A DNA stretch of 64,000 nt. It comes from Nanobdellota archaeon (GTDB lineage Archaea; Aenigmatarchaeota; Aenigmatarchaeia; QMZP01). Under the pieces are notes generated by a model. It was not told the origin of the DNA and ran no database searches. It saw only the letters and a list, made by a program, of their open reading frames with translations. Position 1 is the stretch's first letter. Every line of letters starts with the position of its first letter. Where the stretch lies: NCBI GenBank assembly GCA_043814765.1, contig JBDRJQ010000028.1, positions 29,835 to 93,834 on the forward strand, given 5' to 3'. Shown in pieces: positions 15,082 through 60,098 of this stretch. A program made the translations under genes and the position numbers.

Positions 15082-15084
15082 AAT

Positions 15085-35176: not shown

Positions 35177-35764
35177 ATGCAGATCGATTTGAATTACGTA
35201 GTAAACGCCATTCTGACCAACCTGGCATATGCAGTTGCGCTTGGGCTGGTTATGTGGGGAATTTGCAGGCTTCTGATAAAAGAACCTGAGGGCAATTACT
35301 GGGCACCAAGGGTCATGATGGTAATATTCCTGATCTCTGCGCTTGTCTTCACATTTTCTGTTGGAAGAATAACATTCCCAGCAGTTGACAATGCTGTAGA
35401 AAACATTTTCTCAGGTGTTTCAACATCGATAGCAAGTGCAACACCACATCCTGTGGTAAACATTCAGGTTGACACACCTCCTCCTACTGTAGTAATACAG
35501 AAGGAGACGAGTCAGCCAGTGGTCCGCGAAAGCGAACCGGTTCCAGAAACAACAGAAGGGGATACCTCAAATGAGAAATTTTCTGTAGACGGTCAGTTTG
35601 AAGATGGTACACCATACCATCTTTACACGATTGTCAGGGGCAATACCATATACAGCTTGTCCCGCAGATTTGGTGTCACCCAGGATGAACTTATGAGGCG
35701 GAACGATCTTAGGATTGGAACGCCTCTCCGTATCGGGAGGGATCTCAGGATTCCTATCAAATGA
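35177..35764 (+). CDS. membrane-anchored LysM-domain protein
   Basis: C-terminal LysM: YTIVRGNTIYSLSRRFGVTQDELMRRNDLRIGTPLRIGRDLRIP. Start placed at ATG 35177 with AAGGAGG 7 nt upstream; the ORF-track start 35129 is the alternative. Confidence 0.55.
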   Translation: MQIDLNYVVNAILTNLAYAVALGLVMWGICRLLIKEPEGNYWAPRVMMVIFLISALVFTFSVGRITFPAVDNAVENIFSGVSTSIASATPHPVVNIQVDTPPPTVVIQKETSQPVVRESEPVPETTEGDTSNEKFSVDGQFEDGTPYHLYTIVRGNTIYSLSRRFGVTQDELMRRNDLRIGTPLRIGRDLRIPIK

Positions 35765-41351: not shown

Positions 41352-41598
41352 GCTCAAACACAACATGTTGTGGATTAATTTTAAATAAGTTAGTGGATAA
41401 AGTATAACTATCACAATAAGTATCATAATCTCAATTCACTAATTTGACTTGCAAAGTCCTTCGCATTAGCTCAACACTAACGCGTCGAATTTAAAAAGAA
41501 TGTTTTCCCATTAGCATCTCGCTAGTGGATAGGATATGCAACATTTCATAAGTGTTGGGTATCCTTTTTCTTGACGACTTCTCAGCGTTAAGCTGATC

Positions 41599-41626
41599 AG
41601 CAGCTAGAAATAGCTGCTATTTTTTT
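41599..41626 (+). terminator. hairpin AGCAGCTA-GAAA-TAGCTGCT followed by ATTTTTTT
   Basis: Perfect 8-bp stem, GAAA loop, T7 run. About 250 nt downstream of the HerA-like gene stop. Confidence 0.45.
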
Positions 41627-42494
41627 GACGACTACCGATTTCTAGAAGACCGTCCAACATGAATTCTACGCACAGCACTCTACAAATTCAGGGTGCAGGT
41701 GTATGAGAGACAGTCTATATGACTAGGCTTGAAATAGGTCTCTCGCTGAATGCAACTCTTTGATGGTAATTCTAGATAACCTGATAGGAGGAGAGACCTG
41801 TTTTTGAAAGTAAGCGTCAGTTTCTGTAACGGATTCTGACGATGGTTATAAAAACAGGGCTTTCACTTCGGTGTTAGCCCTACGAAAACAATCAGCAGCT
41901 TGTCTGCGCTTTCATTTAGCGGTTTCAAGTTCGGAAATCAACATCCGAACCGTTAAGATGTCACAGGTGCGCTTACATATTAGCGCGCCTGTTTTTTGAG
42001 AATACGGAACTTGGGGAAACCCTGGATCCTTTTCTACCAAGAGGAAGAGAGCCACAATTGAAGATTCGGCCTTACTAAAAGCTGGGCCAACCCCTTCATA
42101 AAGGATTGAACCTCTTGGTTTTTTGAAAACAATGCAAAGCCGGATCATAAAAACTGTCCAATGATCCGGCAGCTTAAATAATGGACAGGCAAGATCCACA
42201 ATACATTCGAATCGCGGTTCAAACCACAATTTCGGTTTCGGGCGCTTGTAATCACAGCACGACAGAAGAGTTCTTATTTAATGAACTCACATCGTTTCTC
42301 CACTCATCTGCAAGTAATTCTTCGTCCTGCAGCAGTCTCCTTCCACCTTTCCTTCCGTAACGCCTCCACCGATTCTAGTTTACGGCACAATATCTTCTGG
42401 CACAGTATCTTCTGGGATTGTATAAAACGAAGTAACAATTTCCCAGATTGATACAAATTTAAACGCGTCTCTCTTCCCCCCGTAAAAAGGGAAA

Positions 42495-42531
42495 GTGCCC
42501 GACTCCTTCCGCGACTCGGGCACTTTTTTTT
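42495..42531 (+). terminator. GC-rich hairpin GTGCCCGA-N13-TCGGGCAC followed by TTTTTTTT (intrinsic-terminator-like)
   Basis: 8-bp G/C stem plus T8. Would end a + strand transcript arising in the ORF-free region. Confidence 0.45.
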
Positions 42532-42910
42532 GTCCAGCTCATGACTACCGAAAGCAAGGATCGATGATTTAAACATTTACCTGAAACAGCGTGTAATCGG
42601 CACGCATACTCCAGGAATCAACAGATAGATGAGGAGGCCCGAAAAACAAATTAATAATCGCACGAAAGTTGTATTGGTTTTTCAAAAACCTATTCGGTAA
42701 AATCATTGCACAGCCAACAAGCGGTGCAAAATTAACTCAAAAAAGAGAACGGCACTTTGAGGTAAATGAGACATTATTGAATTTAAGCGACACCGAAAAG
42801 AGCCAATCTTAAACGCAGAAGCGATGATCAAACCATCCTTCTGCTTCTTTACATATATCTACTAAAAGGGATATAAGCAATAATCTGCAAACATGCTTCA
42901 AACAAAAAAA

Positions 42911-43216
42911 TTACTTCTTTTTGATGTACTTCTTGAACCATTTAAGAATTGTCCAGCGAGAAACCTTGATCCCGTGCCTGTGTTTCATCTCCTGCTGCAC
43001 CTCGGACAGAGAGAGGCCTTTACTGTAGAGAGCTACAGCTTTCATTATTGTATCTTTTTTGAACCTCATCCGCAGGAAATTGTCGTTTGGGGTATACTTG
43101 CGTCCGCACTTTTTACAGAGCCGAAGGTGCTTTTTAGTTGACTCGTTATACCTAAAACCTCTCCACACAGTGTTTGTGCTCTGGCAATGCGCACATCTCT
43201 CAATTTTATCTTTCAT
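42911..43216 (-). CDS. zinc-ribbon + HTH transposase-like protein (IS1 InsA-like/ISNCY-like helper); possible IS remnant
   Basis: CAHCQS...C-x-x-C (CKKCGRKY) N-terminal zinc ribbon then HTH GLSLSEVQQEMKHRHGIKVSRWTILKWFKKY. No catalytic transposase ORF nearby. Confidence 0.4.
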   Translation of the reverse strand: MKDKIERCAHCQSTNTVWRGFRYNESTKKHLRLCKKCGRKYTPNDNFLRMRFKKDTIMKAVALYSKGLSLSEVQQEMKHRHGIKVSRWTILKWFKKYIKKK

Positions 43217-45197: not shown

Positions 45198-48100
45198 TCA
45201 CAACCCCGACAGGTCCGCCTTCCAGACGCCGTATTCTGTGAGACCGAAAATTAAATATTTATTGTCTGGGGTGAGTGCCAGGTTGTCTGCGACATTGTCC
45301 CTTACCTGGTTGTCTACTATCAGCTCTTTGCCTGGCAGGCCACTGTTTATGATTTTCCAGCTGGCTCCGGCGTCCCTGCTTATGTAAACACCCACGTTGG
45401 TGCTTAAAAACAGTATGTTATGGTTTGGCGGATAAATCAGAAGCGTGTAGAATTCGCTTCCGCTATAAAGGCCGTTCATAATCCTGAACCAGTTCTCTCC
45501 GCCGTCTATTGTTTTCATCACAATACCGCAAAAAGTGTCTTTGTTTCTCTCACAGAAGCCCATGTTCTGCCCGTTCTTAGTTGAGGTATACATTATGCTT
45601 GGATTGTCGCTGTCGATTGCGATTGTGTAAGGCCACTGCTCAGGAGGCATGCCATTGCTTATCATCTCCCACGTTCTTCCTTTATTCAGTGATTTCACAA
45701 CCCCGTTGTATGTTCCTGCAAATAATATGCTGTGATTATGGGGGTGCATGCTCAAAGAAAACATGCCATCATTTCCCAGTTTCAGGCTTGAATCCTCCCA
45801 TGTATGCCCATTGTCCTCGCTTATGAAAAACCCGCTTGGGAAATGACCATAATAAATCTTTCCAGGGACATCAGGGTCAAACAGTATTGAGCTGAACTGA
45901 TACATCCTTCTTTCCCACGGGCTCCACCATCCGCCGCCAAATATGCCCTTTCCAAGACTCTGCCAGCTTTTGCTTGCAGAATTGAATTTATATATCCCGT
46001 ATCCAGCAGTTCCTGCGTAAATATCAGCACCTGTTAAGCCTATTGTTATGACAATATCATCCACATGAATCTCCCCTTCTAGTGATTCAAAAGCAATCCC
46101 TCCGTTCAATAGCGACTCGGTATCAGTATAATCTATCTTCAAATCATCATCAACATAAACCTTAACGTTGTTTCCATTGCCGACAATTTTAATGTCATAC
46201 CACCTGTCTCTGCTAAATGCCATGTCTTTATTTATCAGGTTCGTATGAACGCTATTATAAGTTCGCATCAGGTATAAGCTCCCACTGTTTAGACCTATAG
46301 CATACCTATCACTACCACTAACGCGGTAATTAATATGAACCGAGCCTTTGATTAACTTTACCCTACTCTCGAAAGTGTAATCAGTCCAGCTCTCTGAACC
46401 ACCACTAATCCAGTTATGGTCAATGCCCTGCAAGACATAGTTGCCGCCTTCCTGGATGACAGACCATCCAGTGTCTGACTTCCATCCGTCTGCGTTCCCG
46501 TCCTCAAAATCATCTCCAAGGGGCGGTCCTTCTATGTTTACAACCTTTAGCGATCTTATATCAAGGGTTTTTAGTCCGTCATTCATTTCAGTCCAACTTT
46601 CTCCATCATCACGGGTCACGAACACGCCTTCTTGAGTTCCTACATAAACTGTTTCCGAGTCTTTAGGATCAACAACAACAGCAGTTATAGGTTTCCTGAG
46701 CAACTCATTCTCATTTCCGTTGGCAAACATGCTCACACTCATATACTCGTGAGATCTGTACATTCCCTTTCCGTATGCGCCCATCCAAACGTCTGCCGGA
46801 TTGTTTGGGTCTATAGCAAAACTGTAGTATCCCTGTGTAATTGGATCATCCACAATAATGCTCGGCTGAGCGGTGTTTCTCTCATACCAAGTTTCTCCTC
46901 TATCATCACTTCGGAACATCCCTCCTGGATAAGCAGTTGCATAAATTCGATTAGAATTTGTTGGATCAATTTCAACCTGAATTCTGGAAATGTATGTTTT
47001 TGGTTTGTTGCTTCTGGAATTGTCCCAAGTAATTGAATAATCGTCATTGACAATCCCTGCATAAACCCCGCTTGCCCCTACAGCTGCGTAAACATAACCA
47101 TCTTCAGCTATAAGCGCAGCTGTGCCCAAACTTGGCAAACCCTCATTCTCCTGTTTCCAAGTTTCGCCACCATCACTGCTAACAAAAATACCCTGAGTGC
47201 TTGAGGCTACATACAAAAGATTCGGGTTCTGCGGATCAATCTCAACTGCCATAGTCGCGTGTTCGGTTTCGAGCATACGGGTCCAGGTTTCTCCGCCGTC
47301 TGTTGATTTGTAGGCTCCGCATGCATCCTGCTCTATGTTTTTAGGCAGTCCGGTAGGTTCAATTATATACTCAGGCAGCAATTCGCACAACCCTGCAGCA
47401 TACAGGGTGTTGCTATTGGAATAATCCACATCAATATCGTAGTACCCAAGCCTTGGAAGGCCTCCTTCCTTGTCATCCAGTCTCTCCCAGGTTTCTCCGC
47501 CATCAACACTCTTGAAAACTCCATATCCGTGCTTTGAAACATAAATTGTATTTGGATTGTTTGGATCAACCTCCATTTCAACCGTAGATTCAGCTACGCC
47601 TTCATCATTACCTGGCAGGTTTTCGTTCAGATCTGCTACCATCTCACCATTTATAATCTTTAGTAGTGAACCAGCCGCAACACAGAACGGACGCCCGAAA
47701 GTAGCTGCATAAATCGTATCTGGGTTGTTTGGATCAATTGCTACAGCGCTTGTCAGGACATTAGTTCTATCAAATTCATAATATTCTTCCCAAGTAAGCC
47801 CGCTGTCTTCGGATTTGTGTATAACTGGTTTAAGTCTGTCACATGCGTAAATAATGTCTGGATTTTTTTCAGAAATCGCCAAGCATGTCGGAGACTCAGG
47901 TGCGTTATCAAGCTTCACCCAATTACTTCCTCCGTCAATAGTCTTATAAGTCCCTCCGCCCCAGGTGCCTGCATAAACTATGTCTTTATCCCTTGGATCA
48001 ATCTGAAGCTGTGAATGACGCATAATGGTTGCAAATGTTAGCTCATCGTTAAGTTTACTCCAGGTTTCTCCTTTATTATTGCTCACATAGATGGTTCCTT

Positions 48101-49970
48101 CCTCTCCGATTACTCCTGCGTACATTCTGTCCGGGTTTAGCGGGTCAAACCTGAGCGATGTTATTCCTCTGGAATTCTCAACCCTGAATATCTCGCTCCA
48201 GACGTTTTGGTTTTTGGAATATCTCCAAATAGATGAATGGTTCTCAAATATCTTTGGCGAATACGTGGCATAGATAAAATTGCTGTTCTCTGGATCGATC
48301 TCAATATCATAAGTATAATCAGGGGAATATGTGAGATACCGCCAGCCCCCTTGCGAAGAGGCCTCTGAAATGCCGACACCTATATTGGACGCGTAGATTG
48401 TGCCGGAGTCTTTTGCTATCTCAAAATCAAAAATCTTTGCAGATGAAAAATCCTGAGCGATTTGTGTGAAAGTTCTCCCTCCATCATATGATTCGTATAA
48501 GTCGGTCAGTTCATCAGCCAGCAGGATGTGGTCTGAGTTGTGCGGGTCAATCTTTACATCGTCTCCGGCAGCGACTGGCGTGAATGGTTCCCAAGTATTT
48601 CCAAAATCCCTTGTGACATATGATTCCTGAATAACATTTCCTGAGGTGAACACAACATTCGGGTCTGTTGGGTGGGTCATGACAATGGTGGGGGATGTCC
48701 CTATAATATCACTGTCCATCTTTTTCCATGTTTTCATGCCATCCTCTGACTTAACCATTCCCAGAGCCCATATAGAGCCGGTCTTGCCGTAAGCTATGTT
48801 TGGGTTTTCATAATCAATCAAGAGTGCATCCAAGTTAAAGCCCACTTTTTCAAATACCTTGAGTCTTGGTTCATTGATTCGTTCATAACTAGAGCCATCT
48901 ATCTTAAGTATTGGAATGCCACCATAAGGATTCAGAAGATAATAAGCTGAGCCTGAAATAACAACATCTTCTACTCCATTGGATTCTAAAGTCAGATCTG
49001 TCACAGGGTTCCATGTTTTTCCTCCGTCATAGGATTCTCTTAAGAGCTCAGATATCGGGGAAAACCCCTCATGCACGATGTTGTATCTGAATGGTATCAC
49101 TATGTGTTGAGGATTGTCTGGGTTCTGAACAATCTTTGAAATAATAACACCGTCAGGTGTGTCAAAATCAATCGTGGACCATGTCCCACCAAGGTCTTCT
49201 GAAACGTACAAATAATTTTTTGAGAGTTCCCCTCTGCCACCTTTCATTACATTGATAGCTACCAAGATTCTATTTCCAAGCGCAATAATATTTCGAATTC
49301 CTATATCCTTATCATTTGTCGACAGTACTAAATCTTTCCAGTCAAAATTTCCCGAGGCCTCCCAAGAAGCTAGGTCAGCATACGATATTTCACCACCACC
49401 CATCTTTCCGTCACCAGAAATTATGAAAAGTTTATTGTCACTAACAAAGGGCTTTCCAAAATACCTGTCTGATATTTTTACAGGGTTTCTATTATTGTCA
49501 TAGTAATAAAGACCATCATCACAAATAAAAAATAATTTATCCTTGAAAAGTGCCATTGAATGAACACTGCCTATGATATCCTGTCCCTGCATTAGCTGCC
49601 AGCTTTCGCCTTTATCTACAGACTTCCGTATACCTTCAATAGTTATTACATACAATTCATGCGGCGGGAGGGGATTTTGTATCAATTGTTTTATACGCCC
49701 TCCTGGCGGGCCATTCATGGATACCCATGAAATGCTTGAATCAGCTTCCGGGTGGTACTGGACTTCTTCTCCCCCAAGTTTTTCCTGGACGCATGCATTA
49801 TTTTTGCACGCATAACCAACAGGGCAGATTTTAGTTTGATACTGTTTATCATCAACACAGCATTCGTATGGGCAGTATCCATCCACAAGTGGACTTTCTT
49901 CTGTAACGCATCCGCTGATAAGAACAATTCCTATAATCAATAATCCAATCAAAATTTTTGATTTCATCAT
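45198..49970 (-). CDS. 1590-aa secreted multi-propeller protein with 15 or more BNR/Asp-box (S-x-D-x-G-x-T-W) repeats, N-terminal Cys-rich module and an internal concanavalin/LamG-like (DUF1080-like) domain
   Basis: Signal MMKSKILIGLLIIGIVLISGC. Repeats SYDGGKTW, SEDLGGTW, SNNKGETW, TIDGGSNW, SEDSGLTW, SVDGGETW, STDGGETW, SSDGGETW, SDDRGETW, TRDDGESW, SEDNGHTW, SLNKGRTW, TIDGGENW, SRDAGASW. LamG-like block DDFEDGNADGWKSDTGW...YDIKIVGNGNNVKVYVDD. Confidence 0.6.
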   Translation of the reverse strand: MMKSKILIGLLIIGIVLISGCVTEESPLVDGYCPYECCVDDKQYQTKICPVGYACKNNACVQEKLGGEEVQYHPEADSSISWVSMNGPPGGRIKQLIQNPLPPHELYVITIEGIRKSVDKGESWQLMQGQDIIGSVHSMALFKDKLFFICDDGLYYYDNNRNPVKISDRYFGKPFVSDNKLFIISGDGKMGGGEISYADLASWEASGNFDWKDLVLSTNDKDIGIRNIIALGNRILVAINVMKGGRGELSKNYLYVSEDLGGTWSTIDFDTPDGVIISKIVQNPDNPQHIVIPFRYNIVHEGFSPISELLRESYDGGKTWNPVTDLTLESNGVEDVVISGSAYYLLNPYGGIPILKIDGSSYERINEPRLKVFEKVGFNLDALLIDYENPNIAYGKTGSIWALGMVKSEDGMKTWKKMDSDIIGTSPTIVMTHPTDPNVVFTSGNVIQESYVTRDFGNTWEPFTPVAAGDDVKIDPHNSDHILLADELTDLYESYDGGRTFTQIAQDFSSAKIFDFEIAKDSGTIYASNIGVGISEASSQGGWRYLTYSPDYTYDIEIDPENSNFIYATYSPKIFENHSSIWRYSKNQNVWSEIFRVENSRGITSLRFDPLNPDRMYAGVIGEEGTIYVSNNKGETWSKLNDELTFATIMRHSQLQIDPRDKDIVYAGTWGGGTYKTIDGGSNWVKLDNAPESPTCLAISEKNPDIIYACDRLKPVIHKSEDSGLTWEEYYEFDRTNVLTSAVAIDPNNPDTIYAATFGRPFCVAAGSLLKIINGEMVADLNENLPGNDEGVAESTVEMEVDPNNPNTIYVSKHGYGVFKSVDGGETWERLDDKEGGLPRLGYYDIDVDYSNSNTLYAAGLCELLPEYIIEPTGLPKNIEQDACGAYKSTDGGETWTRMLETEHATMAVEIDPQNPNLLYVASSTQGIFVSSDGGETWKQENEGLPSLGTAALIAEDGYVYAAVGASGVYAGIVNDDYSITWDNSRSNKPKTYISRIQVEIDPTNSNRIYATAYPGGMFRSDDRGETWYERNTAQPSIIVDDPITQGYYSFAIDPNNPADVWMGAYGKGMYRSHEYMSVSMFANGNENELLRKPITAVVVDPKDSETVYVGTQEGVFVTRDDGESWTEMNDGLKTLDIRSLKVVNIEGPPLGDDFEDGNADGWKSDTGWSVIQEGGNYVLQGIDHNWISGGSESWTDYTFESRVKLIKGSVHINYRVSGSDRYAIGLNSGSLYLMRTYNSVHTNLINKDMAFSRDRWYDIKIVGNGNNVKVYVDDDLKIDYTDTESLLNGGIAFESLEGEIHVDDIVITIGLTGADIYAGTAGYGIYKFNSASKSWQSLGKGIFGGGWWSPWERRMYQFSSILFDPDVPGKIYYGHFPSGFFISEDNGHTWEDSSLKLGNDGMFSLSMHPHNHSILFAGTYNGVVKSLNKGRTWEMISNGMPPEQWPYTIAIDSDNPSIMYTSTKNGQNMGFCERNKDTFCGIVMKTIDGGENWFRIMNGLYSGSEFYTLLIYPPNHNILFLSTNVGVYISRDAGASWKIINSGLPGKELIVDNQVRDNVADNLALTPDNKYLIFGLTEYGVWKADLSGL

Positions 49971-49991
49971 AATTCATCCACAAATATAAGA

Positions 49992-51914
49992 TTATTCTTC
50001 CAAATGCATTTCACCCTGAATTATTATGTAGTCGCCTTCCTTTCGTATATCCAGTGTTTGGTCAAAAGATATCCTCAAGTAAGACGGACAGATTTCATAG
50101 TAACCGTCGCTTTTTGGTTCAAATATTGTCTCTCCTTTTTCATTTACGAATTTAATGTATTTGAAATCCTCTTGAGCTTGAGCCGTTTCAAATTCAAAAA
50201 CTACCCCGTTTATTTCTTCAAAACCGCCTATAAGCGGCTTATACTTGTATCCTTCCTCGGTTATAGTCCCTACAGCCATAATAAGAGTATTATAATCAAC
50301 AGCAGGCAGTGAAAAATCCGTTTCAGGTAATTCGCCTTCTTCAATACTTTTAAAGGTTTCTACAAACTGAGCCAACACGCTACTTAAATCACTGTCTTGT
50401 TTAAAATCATCATAAGTTTTAGACAATTGGATTATATCTTTAGAATCGAATAGTACGGCTTCACTAAAATCATCTTTAATTACTATAAAGTCGATTTTTT
50501 TGTTTTCATTTAATTCCAACAATTGTCTGAAGAAACTTGCGGTACTTTTCATTTTATTATGGCCTTCTAATCCAACAATCGCTATTTCGTTTTCAGGGAA
50601 CAAATTAGCTTTGTTTTGCTCATTAACGGATGTTACTCCAAAAGGAAGATCCACATCAAGCCAAGCATAAACCGCTTTCTCCTCTCCCAATATGGCTGCA
50701 ACAGAATTTTCAAAAGCCATTCTCCCAAATTCTTCTCTTTCTCCCCACTCCTTTGATGCCTTCCACCTTGAAACGTAATCCAATGCAGTGTCTTTGAATT
50801 CGTTCTCTTCAGCCAAAGCCAACAAGGCTTCACTAAACTCATCGGTATATTTGTAGTCAATAAAGGTTCTGGGCACCATTGCAAGGGCAACGCAATCAAG
50901 AAACTTTGTTTTGCTCAAATCAAAGGCAATTACAGTATCCAATGCAGGGTATTCCTGCAAATCAATTATCCTGTCATCATCACTGTCCAATACCCCAGTT
51001 GATGGAATGGGAATCCATTGCCCATCATGGTAAATTTCAATCCAGTCGTGAGGCTTTATGCCTACTAGGCGTGACTCAATTATTCTTGCTGGAATTCCAG
51101 CAGCCCTCAATAAAGCCGTTATCAAATAAGTGTGTTCCGCACACATCCCTGTTTTATGCTGCCAAATTAGTTCAACATCGTCATATAGGGACTTGGGCCA
51201 ACTATATTTAGTGATTCTTTCCCTTCCTGTGATATACTCCTTTACAAAATCATAAATATTCCCTGCAGTGGTTAAATCATCCTCTCCCTCTAAACTCAAT
51301 GCCTTTTCCCGCAATGTAGTGGAAAAAAAGTTAAAGTCGTAATAAGTGTCGGTTCCAGAGTTCCAGGACGCGAAAAAATACAGCACCTCTTTTGGGTAAT
51401 CCTGCAGGTTTTGCTTCTCTTTATAGATTTCCAAGAACAGTTTCATAAATTCTATTTCTTCTTCAGAAAAAAACCCTTTCCGGCATTCTGAATAGTCGAA
51501 TCCTACCATTGGCGCGTATTTGTACGGCACATACAGATCAATGAAAACCTCCTCGAGCTCAGGATAGTCTTTTATCTCAGGGATATTTTCTTCTAGCACA
51601 ACTTTTGGTGTTTTTGGACAATCCTGCGGACAGGTTAAATATGTCTCTACAATTATATACGTTTCTTCAGTTTCACATATGCCATCTCCACAGCAGGGAA
51701 TTGTTTGAAAATAATAACAACTATTAGCAATACAATTCTTAGCAAAACAGGTCCTATCCGGACAATCTTCTTTAACTTCACATTCCTTTTCTTCTGCAGG
51801 CAGAGCCCCCTCTTGGACAGTTCCTGAATTAGTAAAAATAACTTCCATCGTCGACAATCCGATTAAAATTCCTATTATCAACAATCCGAATAAAATAATG
51901 TATCCGGGGTTCAT
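49992..51914 (-). CDS. secreted transglutaminase-like cysteine protease-fold protein (paralog 1) with N-terminal Cys-rich module
   Basis: Core GMCAEHTYLITALLRAAGIPARII...HDWIEIYHDGQWIPIPSTGVLD (Cys-His-Asp). N-terminal C-x-x-DCPDRTCF-x-x-C-x-x-NSC...CCGDGICETEE. Confidence 0.55.
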   Translation of the reverse strand: MNPGYIILFGLLIIGILIGLSTMEVIFTNSGTVQEGALPAEEKECEVKEDCPDRTCFAKNCIANSCYYFQTIPCCGDGICETEETYIIVETYLTCPQDCPKTPKVVLEENIPEIKDYPELEEVFIDLYVPYKYAPMVGFDYSECRKGFFSEEEIEFMKLFLEIYKEKQNLQDYPKEVLYFFASWNSGTDTYYDFNFFSTTLREKALSLEGEDDLTTAGNIYDFVKEYITGRERITKYSWPKSLYDDVELIWQHKTGMCAEHTYLITALLRAAGIPARIIESRLVGIKPHDWIEIYHDGQWIPIPSTGVLDSDDDRIIDLQEYPALDTVIAFDLSKTKFLDCVALAMVPRTFIDYKYTDEFSEALLALAEENEFKDTALDYVSRWKASKEWGEREEFGRMAFENSVAAILGEEKAVYAWLDVDLPFGVTSVNEQNKANLFPENEIAIVGLEGHNKMKSTASFFRQLLELNENKKIDFIVIKDDFSEAVLFDSKDIIQLSKTYDDFKQDSDLSSVLAQFVETFKSIEEGELPETDFSLPAVDYNTLIMAVGTITEEGYKYKPLIGGFEEINGVVFEFETAQAQEDFKYIKFVNEKGETIFEPKSDGYYEICPSYLRISFDQTLDIRKEGDYIIIQGEMHLEE

Positions 51915-51936
51915 GTTTTATATTGGGTTTGGGGTA

Positions 51937-52968
51937 CTATAAAAGCTCTGTAAACCATCTCCTGATCACTTCTTCTGTTTTTGAGGACTCTTCAGGACCA
52001 TGCAATCCTGGTATATCTTCTCCAAGAAAACTTAATTCAAGAAAATCTAAAACAAAAAACCCAGCAACCGTGTCCTTTCCTTTTTCAAGGACTATTTCAT
52101 GGGCTCTTGCATCTAATTCTTCACTCCATCCCAATTCCCTCAGCGATGTACCATAAAATTCAGTAATAATGACTCCTTTACAATTGTCTCTTTCTGCAAA
52201 ACCGAGAAATGTGCTCAATGTATAGTCAATAAATGGAGAAAACTCTTCTAGCGTCGTACCAAGACCTCGGCTGATAGTAACTCCAATGTAATCGTATCCC
52301 GAATAGTTCGTCGGGGCGGGTTCCGTCATAGGATAGGGTTGTATACCGCCGATAGACCCCCCTTTCCAAATAACCTCACCATGATAAACCTCTTTTATTC
52401 TGGGGAGGATCTCTTGCCCCCAAGTTGCAGATGCAGACGGGCCAAACAACACTTCTGGTTCATTCATGGGGGCGAAGAATTCAACATCATATTCTTCTGC
52501 TAATCTGGCATATTCAATAACCTTGGAATTCCAAGCCTCTAAATCTATCCAATCCTCTAAACCCATCCCACCTGAGCACTTTGCCATGGTTAATGCAACT
52601 CTCAAACCATTTCTGTGAGCAGCTTGGATGTTGGCAATCATAAGCTCTTCTTGAATCGGAATAATTTTTTTCATTTTTTTAACCAATTCAGAATCGGAAG
52701 GAAGCCCTTCAAGGCAGTGCTCAACCTGAGGGGGAGCACCCTGAAAGAAAACCGTATTCATCCCAATATCCTTCAACTTCTGCATATCAGAAGCCAGCTT
52801 ATACGGATCATCACTTAATAGCGTGGGCGTCCAAGTGCCTTTGTAAACATCAACCTCAGCGGGTATTTTTATCTGCGAGTCCTGAACGCAACCACTGATA
52901 AAAACAATTCCCACTACCAGCAATAAAATCCCCAAAATTAGTTTTTTATTTTTCATCATATTCATCAC
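51937..52968 (-). CDS. glycoside hydrolase family 5-like (cellulase/mannanase superfamily) lipoprotein/secreted enzyme
   Basis: Signal plus ISGC lipobox-like. FAPMNEPEV (NEP acid/base) and VIITEFYG (TE nucleophile) in GH5-like spacing. Confidence 0.45.
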   Translation of the reverse strand: MMNMMKNKKLILGILLLVVGIVFISGCVQDSQIKIPAEVDVYKGTWTPTLLSDDPYKLASDMQKLKDIGMNTVFFQGAPPQVEHCLEGLPSDSELVKKMKKIIPIQEELMIANIQAAHRNGLRVALTMAKCSGGMGLEDWIDLEAWNSKVIEYARLAEEYDVEFFAPMNEPEVLFGPSASATWGQEILPRIKEVYHGEVIWKGGSIGGIQPYPMTEPAPTNYSGYDYIGVTISRGLGTTLEEFSPFIDYTLSTFLGFAERDNCKGVIITEFYGTSLRELGWSEELDARAHEIVLEKGKDTVAGFFVLDFLELSFLGEDIPGLHGPEESSKTEEVIRRWFTELL

Positions 52969-52979
52969 ATTTGGGGGTC

Positions 52980-55079
52980 TTACTCCACAACGATTTGTTC
53001 AGTAGTCATATCACCTTTAATAACCACTATATCATCTTCTCTGTAGATCTCCAGCGTTTGATCTGGGGTAATAAAACCATATGGAGCATCATCTAAGTTG
53101 TATGGGGGTCCTATAACAACTGTTGGATCCGGCCGCGGGTTTCTATATATTTCCGGGTCTGCGTAAACTTCGCCTTCTTCATTTATGAGTTTAAGATTAT
53201 CAAAGTGGCTCCAGTTCATATACTTGAGCGCATCAGGGTCATAAACATCAATATTTATCATTATTGTTGTTTGGTCTGCACTAAATATAATCATAATATC
53301 TTTAACTATAACCATGCTTTGTATGTCAAATTTTATGTTGAATGCTGTGTTTTCCCTATCGAAACCACCACCAATGACAATTGAATACTCTGCTCCCTCT
53401 TGAATATATTCAGGCAAATGGAAGGTTGTGTAATTTTTTTCTTTGCTTACCACGCTAACGATTTCAATTACAAAATCCTTTATGAGTTCAGGCGTTCCCG
53501 TAACCAAGTCTTGGTATGCCGTTTCAAGGGCACCTACGTCTTCCGGGTCAAATAAATTAATAGCAACTGCATCACTCAGGGAACCGCAACCAGCTTCATA
53601 ATGAGCGAAAAAGGAGTATATTTCCCCCTGGAAAAGTTGTTTAATCTCTGGTATAAGCGTGCTGATCTTTTCAAGTGGGAACTCTCCTGCACCAGACGAC
53701 ATGTATTGGATTCCGCCGTGTGATGTAATGTCATAAATTGAAATTGCTTTTGCTTTATCGAGTTCGCTAAGAAAAGCTTCCTCTGTTTTTAACTTATTCC
53801 AATCCCATAAATCCAATACTTTGATGTCTTTTGATTCATACCCTTCCTGTTTCGCTATAATTTCACTAATGCATGTCTCCATGATATCCTGCGCATAGGC
53901 ATATTTGTTAACAAGGTCACTCTCTTTTTTGTATTGGGCAAAAAGCTCTTCTGCTTGTCCAGTAGCACTGGTTTCACCGACCGCTTCTTTTGTGTGCTCT
54001 ATAATCAAATCTAATATATCCGTGTTGTAAGACAGGGAAACATCCATCAATGTATCACTAAGCGGGTCATAAGCGTATACGGAATACAACCACTGTTTTT
54101 CTTCAGGGTATAATTCCATCACTCCGGTTGAATCCACCATGATCCATTCCCCATTTACATAAGCTTCTGTCCAGGCATGTCCTTCTGGTGGCGAAGCAAA
54201 ACGACCTTCCACCTCTCTTGCCGGTATCCCAGATGCCCTACAGAAAGCAGTAATTAAAGTAGCCCAATAGTCACAATGTGCCCAAACTTCTCTGTTTTCT
54301 AATATTGCTTTTGGTGTGTCACCTTCTAGTTCGTAAGCAGCAGTCCAAGTGACATTGATATTTCCCCTAACCCATGAAACAATTTTCTCAATCGATTCCA
54401 TCTCCCCGGAACTTCCCTCTGTTATATCATTAGCCAGAGGGATAAGCTCTTCTACAAAGTACTCCATATCCATGGCACGACTCTTGCCGAAAAATATATC
54501 TGGTTCGATTATATTGGTCACCAGATAAGCTAAAACTTCTTCATCAGCCTGATGCAGACTGGTTTTCAATTTGAAAATATCAAAAAGTGATTTCATATAT
54601 TTCATTTCCGAATCACTAAATTCAACATCAGCATACAAATCGATGAAAACCTGCTCAAGTTTTGGGTATTCTTTTATCTCAGGAATATTTTCCTCTAATG
54701 CGTCTTTGGGGTTTGGACAATCCTGCGAACAGGTTAAATGTGTTTCTCCGATAAATTCAATAGCTGTAGTACCGTTAATAAGCACTATTATAGTATCGTT
54801 AAAAATAAATACATGAGTATCGGTTTCGCATTCTTCAGTTCGACAGCTTAAGTATCTTTCTTCGGTTTCGCATTCTCCATTTCCGCAGCAGGGAATTTTT
54901 TCACAGCAGGGAATCATTTGAGAATAAGAACAACTATTATCAATACAATCCTTCATAAAACAAGTCCTATCCGGGCAATCTTCTTTGAATCTGCATGCAT
55001 CCTTTTGAGCATCCCAAACAAAGAAACTAATCAAAACAAGAATAATTAATCCGAACAAAATGAAGTATTTAACCTTCAT
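52980..55079 (-). CDS. secreted transglutaminase-like protein (paralog 2) with the same N-terminal Cys-rich module
   Basis: VWAHCDYWATLITAFCRASGIPAREVE...HAWTEAYVNGEWIMVDSTGV. Shares N-terminal DCPDRTCF..C..NSC..CC and a C-terminal QTLEIYREDDIVVIKGDM tail with 49992..51914. Confidence 0.55.
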   Translation of the reverse strand: MKVKYFILFGLIILVLISFFVWDAQKDACRFKEDCPDRTCFMKDCIDNSCSYSQMIPCCEKIPCCGNGECETEERYLSCRTEECETDTHVFIFNDTIIVLINGTTAIEFIGETHLTCSQDCPNPKDALEENIPEIKEYPKLEQVFIDLYADVEFSDSEMKYMKSLFDIFKLKTSLHQADEEVLAYLVTNIIEPDIFFGKSRAMDMEYFVEELIPLANDITEGSSGEMESIEKIVSWVRGNINVTWTAAYELEGDTPKAILENREVWAHCDYWATLITAFCRASGIPAREVEGRFASPPEGHAWTEAYVNGEWIMVDSTGVMELYPEEKQWLYSVYAYDPLSDTLMDVSLSYNTDILDLIIEHTKEAVGETSATGQAEELFAQYKKESDLVNKYAYAQDIMETCISEIIAKQEGYESKDIKVLDLWDWNKLKTEEAFLSELDKAKAISIYDITSHGGIQYMSSGAGEFPLEKISTLIPEIKQLFQGEIYSFFAHYEAGCGSLSDAVAINLFDPEDVGALETAYQDLVTGTPELIKDFVIEIVSVVSKEKNYTTFHLPEYIQEGAEYSIVIGGGFDRENTAFNIKFDIQSMVIVKDIMIIFSADQTTIMINIDVYDPDALKYMNWSHFDNLKLINEEGEVYADPEIYRNPRPDPTVVIGPPYNLDDAPYGFITPDQTLEIYREDDIVVIKGDMTTEQIVVE

Positions 55080-55178
55080 GTTTTATATTAGGAGTGGGGG
55101 GGTTATTAAAATTCTTGTTGAGATGGGTAAGAATTTTCAGTTTGATGGGTTTAATGAAATAAGATTGATGGAAGGATA

Positions 55179-55970
55179 TTATTTTGTTGCCTTATCTATA
55201 AGTTTGAACCTATTTTTGCGCTTTCCGTTTTTAGACTTTTTCTTTCTGAACATTCTTGCGATTTTCGGTCCCTCTATCACTATCCCTGACAAAATGAATC
55301 CCGTAATGAATATTCCAATGGATAGATAGCTGATGACTGCGCTGTCTTCTTCCCCTTTAACCTCGAACAGGCTTTCAGACTCTGCTTCCTTGTTTTCGCC
55401 GTAGGATATCTTAGCGCGTACAGTATAGACGCCTGCCTCTATGCCATCAGGCAGGTCAAACTCCTTTATTATGTTGGTCTGGGTTTCCACTGCGACAGTC
55501 TCCCTATCTGTCAGTATAATCCTGTCATTCACGTCGGTTATTCTGTACTGCATCAGGACGTCAATCCTGCCAGGCTCTCCGAAGTTTACAAGACTTACAG
55601 ACAATAAAAAATTATCTCCCATTTTTATCTCATTGTAACCTTCAGGTATGCTCAGCAGGACGTCAAAAAGCGGCCCGGTTGATTCTGGTTGCTCAGGCTC
55701 TTCAGGAACAGGTGATATGTATTCGCATTCCTGGGTCTCAGAAGGCTTGAACTTCTCCTCACTGCATGTTCCGCTGTATGTGCATTCTATGGCCTGCATG
55801 CCGTCAGGCTGGCATTCGCCCCACTTCGTGCAGCTCCATGCGTGATAGCAGTCCTCTTCCTGAGCAGAAGCGCTGTGGAAGAGAAGCGGAAGGGTTAAAA
55901 TTCCTGCGATGATTATTACTGCTGGCACAGCAGCAAGATTCATTCCAAAAACGAAACTCCGGTTTGCCAT
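55179..55970 (-). CDS. secreted Cys-rich protein with C-terminal TM anchor and Lys-rich tail
   Basis: Signal peptide, Cys-rich N-terminal module (CYHAWSCTKWGECQPDGMQAIECTYSGTCSEE), C-terminal TM plus RKKKSKNGKRK. Confidence 0.45.
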   Translation of the reverse strand: MANRSFVFGMNLAAVPAVIIIAGILTLPLLFHSASAQEEDCYHAWSCTKWGECQPDGMQAIECTYSGTCSEEKFKPSETQECEYISPVPEEPEQPESTGPLFDVLLSIPEGYNEIKMGDNFLLSVSLVNFGEPGRIDVLMQYRITDVNDRIILTDRETVAVETQTNIIKEFDLPDGIEAGVYTVRAKISYGENKEAESESLFEVKGEEDSAVISYLSIGIFITGFILSGIVIEGPKIARMFRKKKSKNGKRKNRFKLIDKATK

Positions 55971-56079
55971 TGATTAATTATTCGTTGAGCTGTTATAATA
56001 ATTAAGAGCTGCTTCCTTATCTGATAAGACGCCATTAAGCAAGAGTAATAAATATCTCCGACACTATAATAATTTATAT

Positions 56080-58404
56080 ATGGGTTTTACTATCGCGAAT
56101 AAGAAAATCACAATAAGTATTTCAGTAACATTTGTCTTGTTCTTTTTAACAGTGACGCTGGTCCAATCAGCGGACAGCAGGTGGACCTCAGAGCTGCTTA
56201 CTGTGTGGGATGAAAGCAACAATGCATTCAATGTTACAGATATACGTGACAGTTCAAACCTGCCTCCTGATTTTTCCGGAGGAACCGCGACAAAATTCTC
56301 TGTGAAAATCGATGTGACAGCTAGCAATAAAGTCGATCCAGGGGATGGGATACAATGCAGTCATTGTGAAGCTTATGACTGTGCTGATATGGTTATTATT
56401 GGCACGCTCGATAATCCCGTAATTGGTTTGTACTACCTGAACTCCACTGACCCGGCTCTTCTGGCGCGGATAGAAGGTGATGGTGTTGACATTGAGTGGC
56501 TTAACTGCTCAAAAGTTGGGGATATACCTGTTAACGAACAACTAATAGCCAATATCTATGTTGATTTCAATTACTCGGCAGCAGTAGACGAAACAGATCC
56601 CTACTGGAACTGGGCGTACGACAACATAACAGGCAGCACAATTTTGAGCGGCAACTCGTTTGTGGCCGGCACTGAATGGGCTGATGCGGGCGATGGTTTG
56701 GATGTTGCATGGTTCAGGACCAATGCCACAGGAAGCTGGCTAAACACGACATACCAGGAAATGGGATCAGCAGCCACTTACATATTCAACACTACACTGA
56801 CTACAAACGGAAACGACTATGGGGGAGACACTATATGCTGGACACAGATAGCGAATGACACCGCGGCTGCGAACAACTGGAATGATACAATGCTTGAAAC
56901 CGAAAACTGCATAGATGTTTTGTACAATTTTGTGCCGTCCATAAGCATCAATGATTCAACAATCAATACCGGTGATGCTGCCATTGTTACAGCTACCTGT
57001 GGCAATCCTGGAGAAGATATATTATTAGAAACCTATATTACAATATTAGACAACCAGACTGGTTCTGATATAGTTACTCCAGTCACAAAGGGCTCTAACA
57101 AAATCTATGCAAACGATAGCACTTATTATTTGGGTACATGGTCATCAGCTTCAGTTATAAGAGACTTTAAAATAATGGCTGTGAATAAGGGCTCATATAA
57201 TATAACAATCCGCTGCAACTCCAGTGAGGTCACTGAGAGCGTTTCCACCAAACTGGAGATAGCAGACACTGACGCACCGACTGTAACCAACGCGCGCTAC
57301 AATGATTTAGATTCTCTGATAGAAGTCTTTAGTGAAATAAAGGTAAATGCTACTGTCATAGAGGTTGGAGGAGGAACTATAAGCACGGTTCTCATACAAA
57401 TGACAAAGCCCGACGGAAGCATACAAAATTATACAACATCTTCAAGCGGTTCAGAATATTTTAATACCAGCATAAACTTGACCGTAATAGGAAATTATTC
57501 CTTCTTGTTTTATGCCAACGATACCGCAAACAACATAAATTTCACTGTGAACGCCAGCAAGGAAGGAGGCGGCGCAACAACATCGCTTACCTCCAGAGAT
57601 ACTACAGACCCTACTGGAGACCTAGGTAGTTGGGACGATACAGATACGACTACAGGTTCTACTGTTTGCATAAATGTCACTGGCGTTGCAGACAATTACG
57701 CCATAGATACTGTTAATGTGACTATCATGTATCCGAATGAGACTGTGGTGGCTGTTTATCTGGATGATGACACATCAAGTTGCAGCGGCAGCGCTGGTGA
57801 TGGAGATTGGGGCATCGACGTGAATGTTGGTTCTACTGTTGGAACTTTATGGGCAAATGTTAGTGCTGTTAATGACACATCAGGCAACGTGTTTACTTCA
57901 ATTCCCACACCTGGTGAAGAGCCTAAAGTGACAGTTGTTACAGGTGCTGTGGATACGAGCTTCAGGATAACAATGCCTGGTTCCAATGTCAAGCACATCA
58001 ATTCGACAGATCCCATGCTGCCAAACGCTACACTCAGCATGAACTTTACAATGAGCTCAACAGGCACAGCCGGCACCCAGGCAAACGTTGCGCCATGTGT
58101 TGGCGCGACAAGCGATTGCCAATCAGATGGAACAGCGTTCTTCGTATTCGAAAATGTTGGCGGCGTAACCATTAACATAACAATGCAATTAAACGTAACT
58201 ATGCCATCTAATATCGCACTGGTTTGCGACAAGGACAATAGCCCGGCCGGAGCTACAGCAATTACTACAGAGAATTATAACGTATCGAATGACCTTGAAA
58301 CCAGCTCTGCAATAAGCATCTGGTGCTGGGCATCGTTCACAAACACGCGAACTACTGACATAACAGAAAGGAAGTTAATACACAACGCAACAGAATCAGC
58401 CTAA
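56080..58404 (+). CDS. large Thr/Asn-rich surface glycoprotein-like protein (S-layer/adhesin-like)
   Basis: Signal/anchor MGFTIANKKITISISVTFVLFFLTVTLVQSA. Dozens of N-x-T/S sequons, beta-rich, no enzyme motifs. Confidence 0.45.
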   Translation: MGFTIANKKITISISVTFVLFFLTVTLVQSADSRWTSELLTVWDESNNAFNVTDIRDSSNLPPDFSGGTATKFSVKIDVTASNKVDPGDGIQCSHCEAYDCADMVIIGTLDNPVIGLYYLNSTDPALLARIEGDGVDIEWLNCSKVGDIPVNEQLIANIYVDFNYSAAVDETDPYWNWAYDNITGSTILSGNSFVAGTEWADAGDGLDVAWFRTNATGSWLNTTYQEMGSAATYIFNTTLTTNGNDYGGDTICWTQIANDTAAANNWNDTMLETENCIDVLYNFVPSISINDSTINTGDAAIVTATCGNPGEDILLETYITILDNQTGSDIVTPVTKGSNKIYANDSTYYLGTWSSASVIRDFKIMAVNKGSYNITIRCNSSEVTESVSTKLEIADTDAPTVTNARYNDLDSLIEVFSEIKVNATVIEVGGGTISTVLIQMTKPDGSIQNYTTSSSGSEYFNTSINLTVIGNYSFLFYANDTANNINFTVNASKEGGGATTSLTSRDTTDPTGDLGSWDDTDTTTGSTVCINVTGVADNYAIDTVNVTIMYPNETVVAVYLDDDTSSCSGSAGDGDWGIDVNVGSTVGTLWANVSAVNDTSGNVFTSIPTPGEEPKVTVVTGAVDTSFRITMPGSNVKHINSTDPMLPNATLSMNFTMSSTGTAGTQANVAPCVGATSDCQSDGTAFFVFENVGGVTINITMQLNVTMPSNIALVCDKDNSPAGATAITTENYNVSNDLETSSAISIWCWASFTNTRTTDITERKLIHNATESA

Positions 58405-58469
58405 TTATGAAAATTTCTAAATAGATAACTTTTATAAGTGTGCTTAACGATATTATAATACAGAGTAAA

Positions 58470-59087
58470 ATGTCTGATAGAAAAATTTTAATAATGTGTT
58501 TAACTTTTGCGTTATTTTCAAGCTTTTTGATATCGCAGACTGCACAGGCAGCTAATTATGGTTATACCACCGCATACTTTTATATTCCAACTGACACCAG
58601 CTTTAGCGTAACTATTTTAGGTCAGAGTGATACTAACATAACATCTGAACAATCAGGTACCCCGAATCAGACGAGTTCTTGGATAGCGTTCAACGCCACC
58701 ACTTTAACTCAAGACGATGTTAATGCACAAGCAAAACCAGGAGATGACAGCAACCTGCAAACAGGTCTTGGCAAGCCTATATTTGTCTTCGCCAACACAG
58801 GAACTATAGGCATCAACATAAGCCTGTCTTGGTCAGGATCTGGAAATGCAGGTCCCGATAGCTGTGTAACTGTCAGGATGAATTCGACATGTTTCCCTTC
58901 TGGCGGCTGCGTAGGAGCTTATGAGCTTGAGCAAGAAGAACAAATCAGTACAACAGCAAAAGTTATGGTAGCCAATCTGAGTGTAGGAAGTAAACTGAAC
59001 GCGACTTTAATAGCAAACCTTAGTAGCTGTGAATTAGGAACATTTGACAGTATTGCTGACCTAAGCTATGAGTCTGGTCAAGAATAG
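58470..59087 (+). CDS. secreted Thr/Ser/Asn-rich protein
   Basis: Start at ATG 58470 (MSDRKILIMCLTFALFSSFLISQTAQA signal); the ORF-track start was GTG 58440. Confidence 0.4.
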   Translation: MSDRKILIMCLTFALFSSFLISQTAQAANYGYTTAYFYIPTDTSFSVTILGQSDTNITSEQSGTPNQTSSWIAFNATTLTQDDVNAQAKPGDDSNLQTGLGKPIFVFANTGTIGINISLSWSGSGNAGPDSCVTVRMNSTCFPSGGCVGAYELEQEEQISTTAKVMVANLSVGSKLNATLIANLSSCELGTFDSIADLSYESGQE

Positions 59088-59146
59088 AATAAAAATATAC
59101 AACAAATCTTTTTAAGATATTGATACAACTATAATAAAGTGTTCAT

Positions 59147-60058
59147 ATGGAAAGAAAAAATAAAAGAAAACAAAATTTCAGCGAGAAAATTGAAAAAAAA
59201 CATGTTTATGCCGGCGTTTTGATTCTGATTGTTGCGGCCGCTTTTGTGGTATTCGGCTCCTCCACGGGTTTCATGATCCTTGGCTTTCAGCCAAGCACTT
59301 CCGTATATATTTCACAGGAACAGGAACAGCTCTATAGGACATACTTTGATACAGACAGGCCCCTGCACTGTCAGGAAGGAAGGTGCATAAACCCGCTAGT
59401 GTATGAAGATCTGCCTGAATGGCCAGATGATGCAGAGTTCGAAGCAATAACAATCCTGGTAAAGGACAGTAAAATAAACCCAGCGGATATAGAAGAAGAA
59501 TTTTACAAACAGCCTGAGTTTTTCCCTTCCCATATAAAAGGCATATCTTATGAAGCGTACCTGTATCCTGGAGGCAGGCCGTCAATATGCTGCGAAGGCG
59601 CCTACCCAGGAAAAGTTATTATATCGCATGCAAGCCGTGGTGACTCGTTTGAATCAGTTACTTTCTTCTTATCACCGCCAGGAAGCCCATACTTTAGGGG
59701 GGCGCAATTCATTCCTGTCTTTCCTCAAACATTTGGCGCCCAAGGAAAATTCTACACGCAGAACGCAGAAGAGGTCAAGAAATATTTTGATATAGAAATA
59801 ACACCGAACATCTTCAAGTTCGAACCAACCTATCCAAAATATCGGTATGACTGGAATGCAAGAGTGAAAGTAAATGTTAAAATAGACGAAAATACACCGC
59901 AAGGGTATTATGCAATCGGCATAACAACTATAGCACCGCCGGAAGAGATTAACTATAAATGGCAATTAGAACATAAAATGGCTTACACCCCAACACTCAC
60001 AGGTGGCATGTTTAGCACAGGAAATCCTCCTTACACAATAGTGCTGAATGTTGTTTAA
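59147..60058 (+). CDS. N-terminally anchored extracellular protein
   Basis: Lys-rich N-terminus, then TM VYAGVLILIVAAAFVVFG, then Pro/Tyr-rich domain. Confidence 0.4.
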   Translation: MERKNKRKQNFSEKIEKKHVYAGVLILIVAAAFVVFGSSTGFMILGFQPSTSVYISQEQEQLYRTYFDTDRPLHCQEGRCINPLVYEDLPEWPDDAEFEAITILVKDSKINPADIEEEFYKQPEFFPSHIKGISYEAYLYPGGRPSICCEGAYPGKVIISHASRGDSFESVTFFLSPPGSPYFRGAQFIPVFPQTFGAQGKFYTQNAEEVKKYFDIEITPNIFKFEPTYPKYRYDWNARVKVNVKIDENTPQGYYAIGITTIAPPEEINYKWQLEHKMAYTPTLTGGMFSTGNPPYTIVLNVV

Positions 60059-60098
60059 TTTCGAATAATTCTTATAGCAGAAAACTAATAATAAATAT

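Follow-up and report, generated by a model that had tools for sequence, protein, structure and literature searches.

A surface-protein locus of a DPANN archaeon with putative glycan-processing functions

The window analyzed in this study is a 64,000-nucleotide (nt) stretch of an archaeal genome assigned to Nanobdellota (GenBank assembly GCA_043814765.1, contig JBDRJQ010000028.1, positions 29,835 to 93,834 of the forward strand). A locus of five neighboring minus-strand genes, referred to below as cys263, tg699, gh343, tg640, and giant, occupies positions 45198-55970 of the window. The reading favored here, with a probability of about 0.55, is that this locus, built from known folds, encodes membrane-tethered, outward-facing proteins that process glycans or glycoproteins. 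A reading made from the sequence alone had suggested that five consecutive minus-strand, signal-bearing genes could form an apparatus for surface attachment or cell-wall remodeling in a small-genome archaeon. The coordinates of the open reading frames (ORFs) were identical to those first noted, and all five products have a single N-terminal hydrophobic segment for export or anchoring. The genome is that of a DPANN archaeon, and NCBI labels the metagenome-assembled genome (MAG) Nanoarchaeota (proteins MFH1445322-330). The genes of the locus are as follows.

55179-55970, minus strand: cys263, a Cys-rich protein of 263 aa
52980-55079, minus strand: tg699, a transglutaminase (TGase)-fold protein of 699 aa
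51937-52968, minus strand: gh343, a glycoside hydrolase (GH)-like protein of 343 aa, the "GH5-like" gene of the sequence-only reading
49992-51914, minus strand: tg640, a TGase-fold paralog of tg699, of 640 aa
45198-49970, minus strand: giant, an Asp-box repeat protein of 1590 aa

All of the folds are known, and the family of gh343, the DPANN TGase family, and the four-propeller giant with its CBM66-like insert are uncharacterized families. Tethering was assessed with the archaeal lipobox pattern, [LVI][ASTVI][GAS]-Cys immediately following the hydrophobic stretch at the N terminus. Giant (LISGC, Cys21) and gh343 (FISGC, Cys27) carry archaeal-type lipoboxes, and tg699 and tg640 do not; lipidation itself is a prediction.

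The AlphaFold2 model of gh343 (pLDDT 85, pTM 0.82) is a (β/α)8 barrel with eight β-α units, and a Foldseek search with this model returned GH113 mannanases first (5yli, 7dvj, and 4cd7; E values of ~1e-10, probability of 1.0, TM scores of 0.56-0.64), followed by GH5 enzymes. Glu170 (NEP) and Glu270 (ITEF), the predicted acid/base and the predicted nucleophile, respectively, were invariant in 42 of 42 gh343 relatives and are located where strands 4 and 7 terminate (residues 164-169 and 265-272 of the model). Because a clan GH-A (β/α)8 barrel with the canonical Glu pair on these two strands is predicted, gh343 is most likely a retaining β-glycanase. Its sequence fell below every Pfam threshold (18.1 bits for GH113, with a cut-off of 27), and the best match in a profile search of PDB sequences had an E value of 0.046. 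Among the 42 relatives, GH113 was matched weakly by 31 and GH5 (Cellulase) by 1. On the model, gh343 is a clan GH-A protein that is nearest to GH113 and falls in no curated family; the clan implied by the previous GH5-like label is thus retained, whereas the GH5 family itself is not. The protein has the same barrel, in which strands 4 and 7 each end in a Glu (NEP and TEF type), as GH113 β-mannanases (AaManA, 3civ/4cd7; BaMan113A, 7dv7) and, next, GH5 endoglucanases and mannanases. Unlike GH113 enzymes, with which it shares ~14% identity, gh343 is predicted to be lipoprotein anchored, belongs to a family found essentially only in bacteria of the candidate phyla radiation (CPR) and archaea of the DPANN group, and is paired with a DUF1080-like domain.

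At least 15 Asp-box repeats had been noted in giant, and in total 17 relaxed and 11 strict S-x-D-x-G-x-[TS]-[WFY] matches were counted (0.016 expected from shuffled sequences). An iterated blade hidden Markov model detected ~25 units, which suggests ~27 blades, allowing for undetected ones, or roughly four 7-bladed propellers. The protein also has a short Cys-rich segment (aa 33-60), and ~80 full-length relatives share its architecture. Its Pfam matches include Sortilin-Vps10 (3e-52, 178 bits), BNR (3e-22), BNR_2 (2e-12), and PSII_BNR. All of the Pfam and NCBIfam matches, including F510_1955, are repeated partial matches to blades. The sialidase- or sortilin-type propellers proposed previously are therefore borne out as a resemblance at the level of the blade, but not as membership in a complete domain family. 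When a profile of 18 members of the giant family was searched against PDB sequences, GH74 xyloglucanases ranked at the top (6p2m, 4e-27; 2cn3, 4e-26; range to 6e-23), followed by DAIP (dispase-autolysis-inducing protein), sortilin, and Ycf48. Two regions of giant stand out.

46041-46520, minus strand: concanavalin-like DUF1080/3-keto-disaccharide-hydrolase/CBM66-like domain (aa 1151-1310), inserted ahead of the last propeller
45201-46040, minus strand: C-terminal propeller (aa 1311-1590), where conservation within the giant family is highest

Searched alone, aa 1151-1310 scored 33.3 bits for PF06439 (3keto-disac_hyd; cut-off, 26.8), in agreement with the LamG/DUF1080-like domain proposed from the sequence, and Laminin_G_2 and Laminin_G_3 also matched. 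Levanase CBM66 structures (4b1l and 4azz) matched the giant-family profile at 3e-4, and both a lectin and an enzyme fit these matches. In contrast to known CBM66/DUF1080 modules, the copy in giant is inserted in a multi-propeller protein, and the CPR copy is a separate membrane protein that is translationally coupled to the GH. In the 18-sequence alignment, the density of invariant columns peaks in the C-terminal propeller, which contains the conserved motifs WWSPWERRMYQF, GNDGMFS, PPEQWPYT, TKNGQN.GFC.RN, and NQVRDNVADNL. The nearest solved chain to this propeller is 3b7f, an uncharacterized "glycosyl hydrolase, BNR repeat" (9e-10). The C-terminal propeller is a candidate ligand-binding or active site, and its conserved residues include E1353, R1354, R1355, D1393, D1401, K1465, R1475, R1557, and D1558.

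Several family assignments of giant were rejected. A GH33 sialidase is not indicated, since the BNR_2 match spans only profile positions 137-209 of 277 and there was no sialidase structure among the PDB matches. For sortilin/Vps10, all of the matching stretches fall repeatedly on profile positions ~2-115 of 446, and no complete 10-bladed unit with a 10CC module was found. The Ycf48 matches are likewise partial and repeated at the level of blades. Asp-box β-propeller blades are common to giant, sortilin/Vps10, and Ycf48/HCF136; however, giant lacks the 10-bladed Vps10 unit with its 10CC module and has no link to photosystem assembly. The NCBIfam model NF045728 ("F510_1955 family glycosylhydrolase") reached 277 bits only when 11 partial matches to blades were added together; single segments scored 54-82 bits, with a cut-off of 175 bits. 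The tandem 7-bladed Asp-box propellers predicted for giant would resemble those of the GH74 xyloglucanases and OXG-RCBH (2cn2, 1sqj, and 6p2m), which have two propellers; giant would have about four, and it also has a lectin-like insert and a lipobox. The position aligned to the GH74 catalytic Asp (Asp in 2cn2 and Ala in 2cn3) is His in giant (ARxDIGG versus SKHGYG), an assignment that is provisional since the sole alignment covering it is weak (7 bits). D-[IV]-G-G was not seen by eye in any giant blade, and for the two-propeller cleft of GH74 the profile matches are partial and blade-wise, with ~27 blades counted.

Some relatives of giant are larger and carry additional domains. P0157 (2177 aa) and P0179 (1848 aa) are fused to Amidohydro_2 (PF04909), P0157 also has a β-helix, and other relatives have PKD repeats, which suggests that the propeller scaffold was repeatedly joined to hydrolase modules. 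Giant contains 2 N-glycosylation sequons, while 13.6 are expected; its archaeal orthologs contain 2-3, two CPR-type copies contain 9-12, and a Dehalococcoidales copy contains 2. As the Dehalococcoidales homolog is equally depleted, no conclusion about selection against N-glycosylation was drawn.

Transglut_core (PF01841; cut-off, 23 bits) was matched by both tg699 (67.8 bits) and tg640 (48 bits). The two proteins align end to end (26% identity; E value, 2e-53) and have in common the module KEDCPDRTCF.K.CI.NSC.Y.Q.IPCCG.G.CETEE as well as the tail DQTL.I..E.D..II.G.M, which supports the earlier description of TGase-like paralogs sharing a Cys-rich module and a tail. From its N terminus, tg699 has a transmembrane (TM) anchor without a lipobox Cys, a variable Cys-rich module (aa ~28-120), a helical domain, the TGase-fold core, and a C-terminal region of ~350 aa. 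Its predicted catalytic residues are encoded as follows.

54132-54275, minus strand: catalytic triad codons of tg699, with Cys269 at 54273-54275, His301 at 54177-54179, and Asp316 at 54132-54134, aligned to the C/H/D of 3isr

Cys269 and His301 of tg699 are invariant across 17 relatives. In tg640, Cys258 and His289 are kept and Pro304 occupies the Asp position, so that the Cys-His-Asp triad is complete only in tg699. Within the tg640 clade, Pro at this position is also found in the ortholog at the Diapherotrites locus described below (L003), and the other members have Gly, Ala, or Ser, with one having Asp. The AlphaFold2 model of tg699 has a pLDDT of 76 overall and 80-95 over aa 120-699. Foldseek matches to this model were confined to the core and included 9crn (TglA of S. 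pyogenes; 3e-6), 3isr (a putative protease of Cytophaga; 2e-5), and 4xz7. The profile of the C-terminal ~350 aa (helical, alpha/beta, and beta-sandwich) found no relative in PDB sequences or Pfam. A PNGase-like assignment of the TGases was rejected, since PNGase 2f4m matched only at an E value of 0.2, compared with 5e-6 for generic TGase-like proteases.

The TGase family is small, with ~20 full-length relatives among 5.8 billion proteins, and nearly all of the named members are from DPANN MAGs. The Cys-rich module is present in some members and absent from others. Like the TGase-like cysteine proteases of COG1305/PF01841 (3isr and 9crn), tg699 has a papain-like core with Cys-His-Asp and is predicted to be extracytoplasmic and membrane anchored; the archaeal pseudomurein endoisopeptidases PeiW and PeiP, which are TGase-like cysteine proteases as well, are a further comparison. 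The DPANN family differs from these proteases in its restricted distribution, the orphan C-terminal region of ~350 aa, the variable Cys-rich module, the tg640 clade mostly without Asp, and the absence of pseudomurein-binding repeats. A third, partial TGase paralog (P0017, MFH1445057.1), which is 65% identical to tg699 and has Tyr at the Asp position, was found on a 69.5-kb contig. Its accession lies in the same block as those of the window proteins, so it apparently comes from the same MAG, and the genome probably carries at least three TGase copies.

The linkage of these genes was examined in the loci of relatives (numbered with the prefix L). TGase and GH genes are linked in the window and in L036, where a gene for a tg640-type lipoprotein overlaps a gene for a GH113-like lipoprotein by 4 bp. 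TGase and giant genes are linked in the window, in L003 (a Diapherotrites MAG), where four tandem TGase genes are followed by a giant gene (68% identity), and in a 6.1-kb contig, where they lie one gene apart (MFH1321219 and MFH1321221). GH and giant genes are linked in the window and in the archaeal locus L006, where the GH gene (71% identity) adjoins a gene for a 1599-aa giant (70% identity, with the same architecture) and there is no TGase gene. In L001, the genes after a TGase gene encode a β-helix protein and a clan GH-A enzyme of another kind; the latter, a 375-aa neighbor, was rejected as a gh343 homolog (BLAST E value of 0.44) and instead has GH1/GH10/GH5-like matches. The CPR loci L007/L010, L011, L012, and L013 are truly bacterial in their surroundings, σ70 and DnaG being encoded nearby, and in them the GH gene overlaps an upstream gene for a TM protein of ~325 aa. 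The C terminus of this protein is the same domain as aa ~1142-1308 of giant (tblastn E values of 9e-16 to 6e-12 in L007, L011, L012, and L013). As judged from these gene orders, the most conserved partnership is that of the GH with the lectin-like domain, which in DPANN archaea lies inside giant.

Two further features of these loci concern gene copies. The TGases of L003 (6535-15011) comprise one tg640-type and three tg699-type proteins with varying N-terminal modules, and one of the four proteins has Tyr at the catalytic Asp position. The CPR GH113-like gene is often present as a tandem duplicate (L007, 2568-4647; L008, 8001-10093; L012, 3354-5591), and the extra copy in L012 has a Pro-rich N terminus like that of the lectin-domain partner.

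Both the GH and giant have close relatives in bacteria. The gh343 protein is 59-70% identical to CPR proteins, compared with 44-51% to other DPANN copies, and CPR and DPANN sequences are interleaved in a neighbor-joining tree of the GH. Of the 14 GH loci at ≥42% identity, 12 are from CPR bacteria or DPANN archaea. Giant shares 64% identity with a CPR copy (L031, Parcubacteria DG_74_2), 56% and 43% with two further copies from archaea, and ~50% with Dehalococcoidia copies. The high identity (59-70%) that the GH and giant of the archaeon share with their bacterial counterparts is clear evidence, at the sequence level, that both passed between domains, with recent gene flow among co-occurring ultra-small organisms. 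Transfer by viruses was not indicated, since no GH or giant relatives were found in IMG/VR contigs.

Under the favored reading, the lectin-like domain and the propellers would bind a polymer of β-linked glycan and keep it at the cell surface, where the GH would cut it. The TGase-fold enzymes would be Cys-His peptidases or amidases that attack the peptide portion of this material, and tg640, without Asp, may be a weakened or regulatory paralog. The released fragments would nourish a cell whose own biosynthesis is limited. Hydrolysis, rather than adhesion, is suggested by the catalytic Glu pair, which is invariant in the GH, and by the Cys-His pair conserved in the TGase fold, and the attachment and cross-linking put forward by the sequence-only reading had been conjecture. 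The substrate is the weakest step: a polymer of a partner-cell or biofilm envelope is favored over bulk plant polysaccharide because the GH family is almost confined to CPR bacteria and DPANN archaea and is exchanged between them. Bacteroidota polysaccharide-utilization loci encode surface glycan-binding lipoproteins and GH lipoproteins. As an analogy only, they resemble the archaeal locus in having a lipid-anchored glycan binder and a glycanase side by side at the cell surface; however, the archaeal locus has no SusC/SusD homologs, regulator, or transporter, and its membrane is archaeal. The literature on DPANN transglutaminases, TglA, BNR and DUF1080 in archaea, and CPR/DPANN GH transfer contained nothing specific to these families, and their linkage was not described there.

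Several points weigh against this reading. No sugar-transporter, sugar-uptake, or catabolic genes were found in or near the locus. TGase folds may be proteases, amidases, cross-linkers, or inactive, and giant may not be catalytic at all, its GH74 likeness being at the blade level only. Most TGase relatives have an ISGC lipobox, whereas the pair in the window lacks the Cys (tg640 has NSGT and tg699 has a different segment); since the lipobox Cys is lost, tg699 and tg640 probably stay in the membrane by way of TM anchors that are not cleaved. Dehalococcoidia also have members of the giant family, the linkage evidence comes from fewer than 10 independent loci, and TGase members and, often, giants stand alone (L002, L004/L035, L031, L032, and L033). 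Because each family also occurs alone, the genes are, on their distribution, a flexible module and not a fixed apparatus. Of the surface apparatus proposed earlier, the predicted export and tethering and a real pairwise linkage remain, whereas the idea of a fixed unit does not.

It is possible, though doubtful, that the locus is a host attachment apparatus, in which giant would be an adhesin gripping host glycans, the TGases would remodel the zone of contact or cross-link it covalently, and the GH would open the host envelope. The DPANN lifestyle, the lectin-like and propeller domains, and the membrane tethering are consistent with such a role, as are the concentration of the GH family in episymbiotic CPR and DPANN lineages and the tandem amplification and variable Cys-rich N termini of the TGases, which are features of interaction proteins. 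However, neither adhesin-type repeats nor a host is known, and the set is not co-inherited as a unit. The Dehalococcoidia copies also show that the giant family is not specific to lineages associated with hosts. In addition, bacterial and archaeal TGase-like proteins of the COG1305 type are mostly predicted hydrolases, and one of the two paralogs lacks the third triad residue. Somewhat less probable is a role in maintenance of the archaeon's own envelope, with the enzymes trimming, maturing, or turning over S-layer glycoproteins or surface polysaccharide. The enzymes are all tethered to the membrane of the producer, and the locus is divergent from genes for sequon-rich, signal-bearing proteins (774 aa and 649 aa) that resemble surface glycoproteins; yet such a sequon-rich neighborhood was not seen at the homologs in L001-L006, L031-L033, and L036, and the same GH and lectin pair is found in CPR bacteria, whose envelope chemistry differs.

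It is unlikely that the locus serves a fermentative archaeon of sediments in scavenging plant or algal polysaccharide (β-mannan, glucomannan, or xyloglucan) from the environment, with the TGases being unrelated neighbors. The nearest characterized relatives are GH113 mannanases and GH74 xyloglucanases, and the relatives come from sediment and groundwater metagenomes, both of which would suit this explanation. Nevertheless, the identity to GH113 is low (~14%, with a Pfam score below threshold), the aligned GH74 catalytic Asp is not matched, and sugar-uptake and catabolic genes are missing from the locus. Moreover, TGase genes are linked with a GH gene independently in three places (the window, L036, and L001), a recurrence that speaks against the TGases being chance neighbors of the GH.

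A broader version of the favored reading is offered tentatively. The GH113-like enzyme, the DUF1080-like domain (free-standing in CPR bacteria and within giant in DPANN archaea), and the DPANN-specific TGases might form a horizontally traded surface toolkit with which these episymbionts open up the glycoconjugates of a partner cell's envelope and use them as food. If true, this toolkit would be a shared molecular basis of the parasitic lifestyle in both ultra-small radiations. The molecular means by which DPANN archaea and CPR bacteria make contact with other cells and exploit them are poorly known, and the locus supplies concrete candidates: an unclassified GH-A family nearly confined to the two radiations, its conserved lectin-domain partner, and a DPANN-restricted TGase-fold family. 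The genes would be useful as markers of an episymbiotic lifestyle if the substrate is a polymer of the partner-cell envelope; if it is a plant glycan, they would simply encode new carbohydrate-active enzymes.

The remaining gene, cys263, encodes an N-terminal signal or TM segment (aa 12-30), six Cys residues (aa ~40-88), a beta-rich domain (aa ~99-205), a C-terminal TM segment (aa 212-238), and a Lys/Arg tail; the database copy begins at Met10 (254 aa). The protein had no Pfam match. An exhaustive HMMER search at E ≤1e-3 found its module in 2332 cluster representatives, often as the C terminus of far larger proteins of up to 2897 aa, and no cys263 homolog was found in any related locus. It is, by this distribution, a generic surface-stalk or anchor module with no specific tie to the other four genes. 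The Cys-rich anchored protein of the sequence-only reading is accordingly Cys-rich with a C-terminal TM segment, but without a conserved link to the locus.

The spacing of the genes also sets cys263 apart. It lies upstream of tg699 with a gap of 99 nt, while the gaps tg699/gh343, gh343/tg640, and tg640/giant are 11, 22, and 21 nt, respectively. Two TATA-like boxes were read from the sequence.

55993-56003, minus strand: TATA-like box AATTATTATAA, ~28 nt 5' of the cys263 ATG, a putative separate promoter of cys263
55103-55110, minus strand: TATA-like box TTTAATAA, ~27 nt 5' of the tg699 ATG, a putative promoter of a leaderless tg699-gh343-tg640-giant transcript

The spacing of 11-22 nt and the A/T-rich TATA-like boxes suggest a single leaderless operon and a separately promoted cys263, so the transcription unit is likely tg699-gh343-tg640-giant, with cys263 under its own promoter.

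The window is part of a 98-kb contig, and archaeal housekeeping genes surround the locus, including those for ArgRS, ABCE1/RLI, a T2SSE pilus ATPase of the archaeal type, and a DUF87/HerA-like ATPase. No RNA genes were found in the window with Rfam and tRNA scans. An interval of ~1.5 kb (41351-42911), bounded by the gene for the DUF87/HerA-like ATPase and by a small Zn-ribbon/HTH ORF (42911-43216, minus strand), contains no ORF longer than 105 aa. This interval had no tRNA and no Rfam match even at an E value of 0.1, and its short ORFs had no Pfam match; a gene in decay, the remnant of a mobile element, or an RNA not yet described may lie here.

Divergent from the locus, four signal-bearing proteins are encoded at 56080-62048 on the plus strand. 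Three of the four are strongly enriched in N-x-S/T sequons, with 35 in the 774-aa protein (15.5 expected), 8 in the 215-aa protein (3.2 expected), and 20 in the 649-aa protein (5.7 expected), the last of which has a TM helix at its C terminus. None of the four matched a Pfam family above the cut-off, and only the 774-aa protein had a weak ChitinaseA_N match (E value of 0.013). By their composition, the sequon-rich proteins are likely S-layer or surface glycoproteins. Elsewhere in the window, a 211-aa protein (35129-35764, plus strand) of this archaeon has a LysM domain at its C terminus (E value of 3e-10). LysM domains bind polymers containing GlcNAc, such as peptidoglycan and chitin, and this protein may bear on which surfaces the archaeon touches. 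Two more large proteins of unassigned function (703 and 736 aa), one with a divergent InlB B-repeat (Flg_new_2) domain, are encoded at 12970-17295 on the plus strand and may be another surface-protein pair in the same region.

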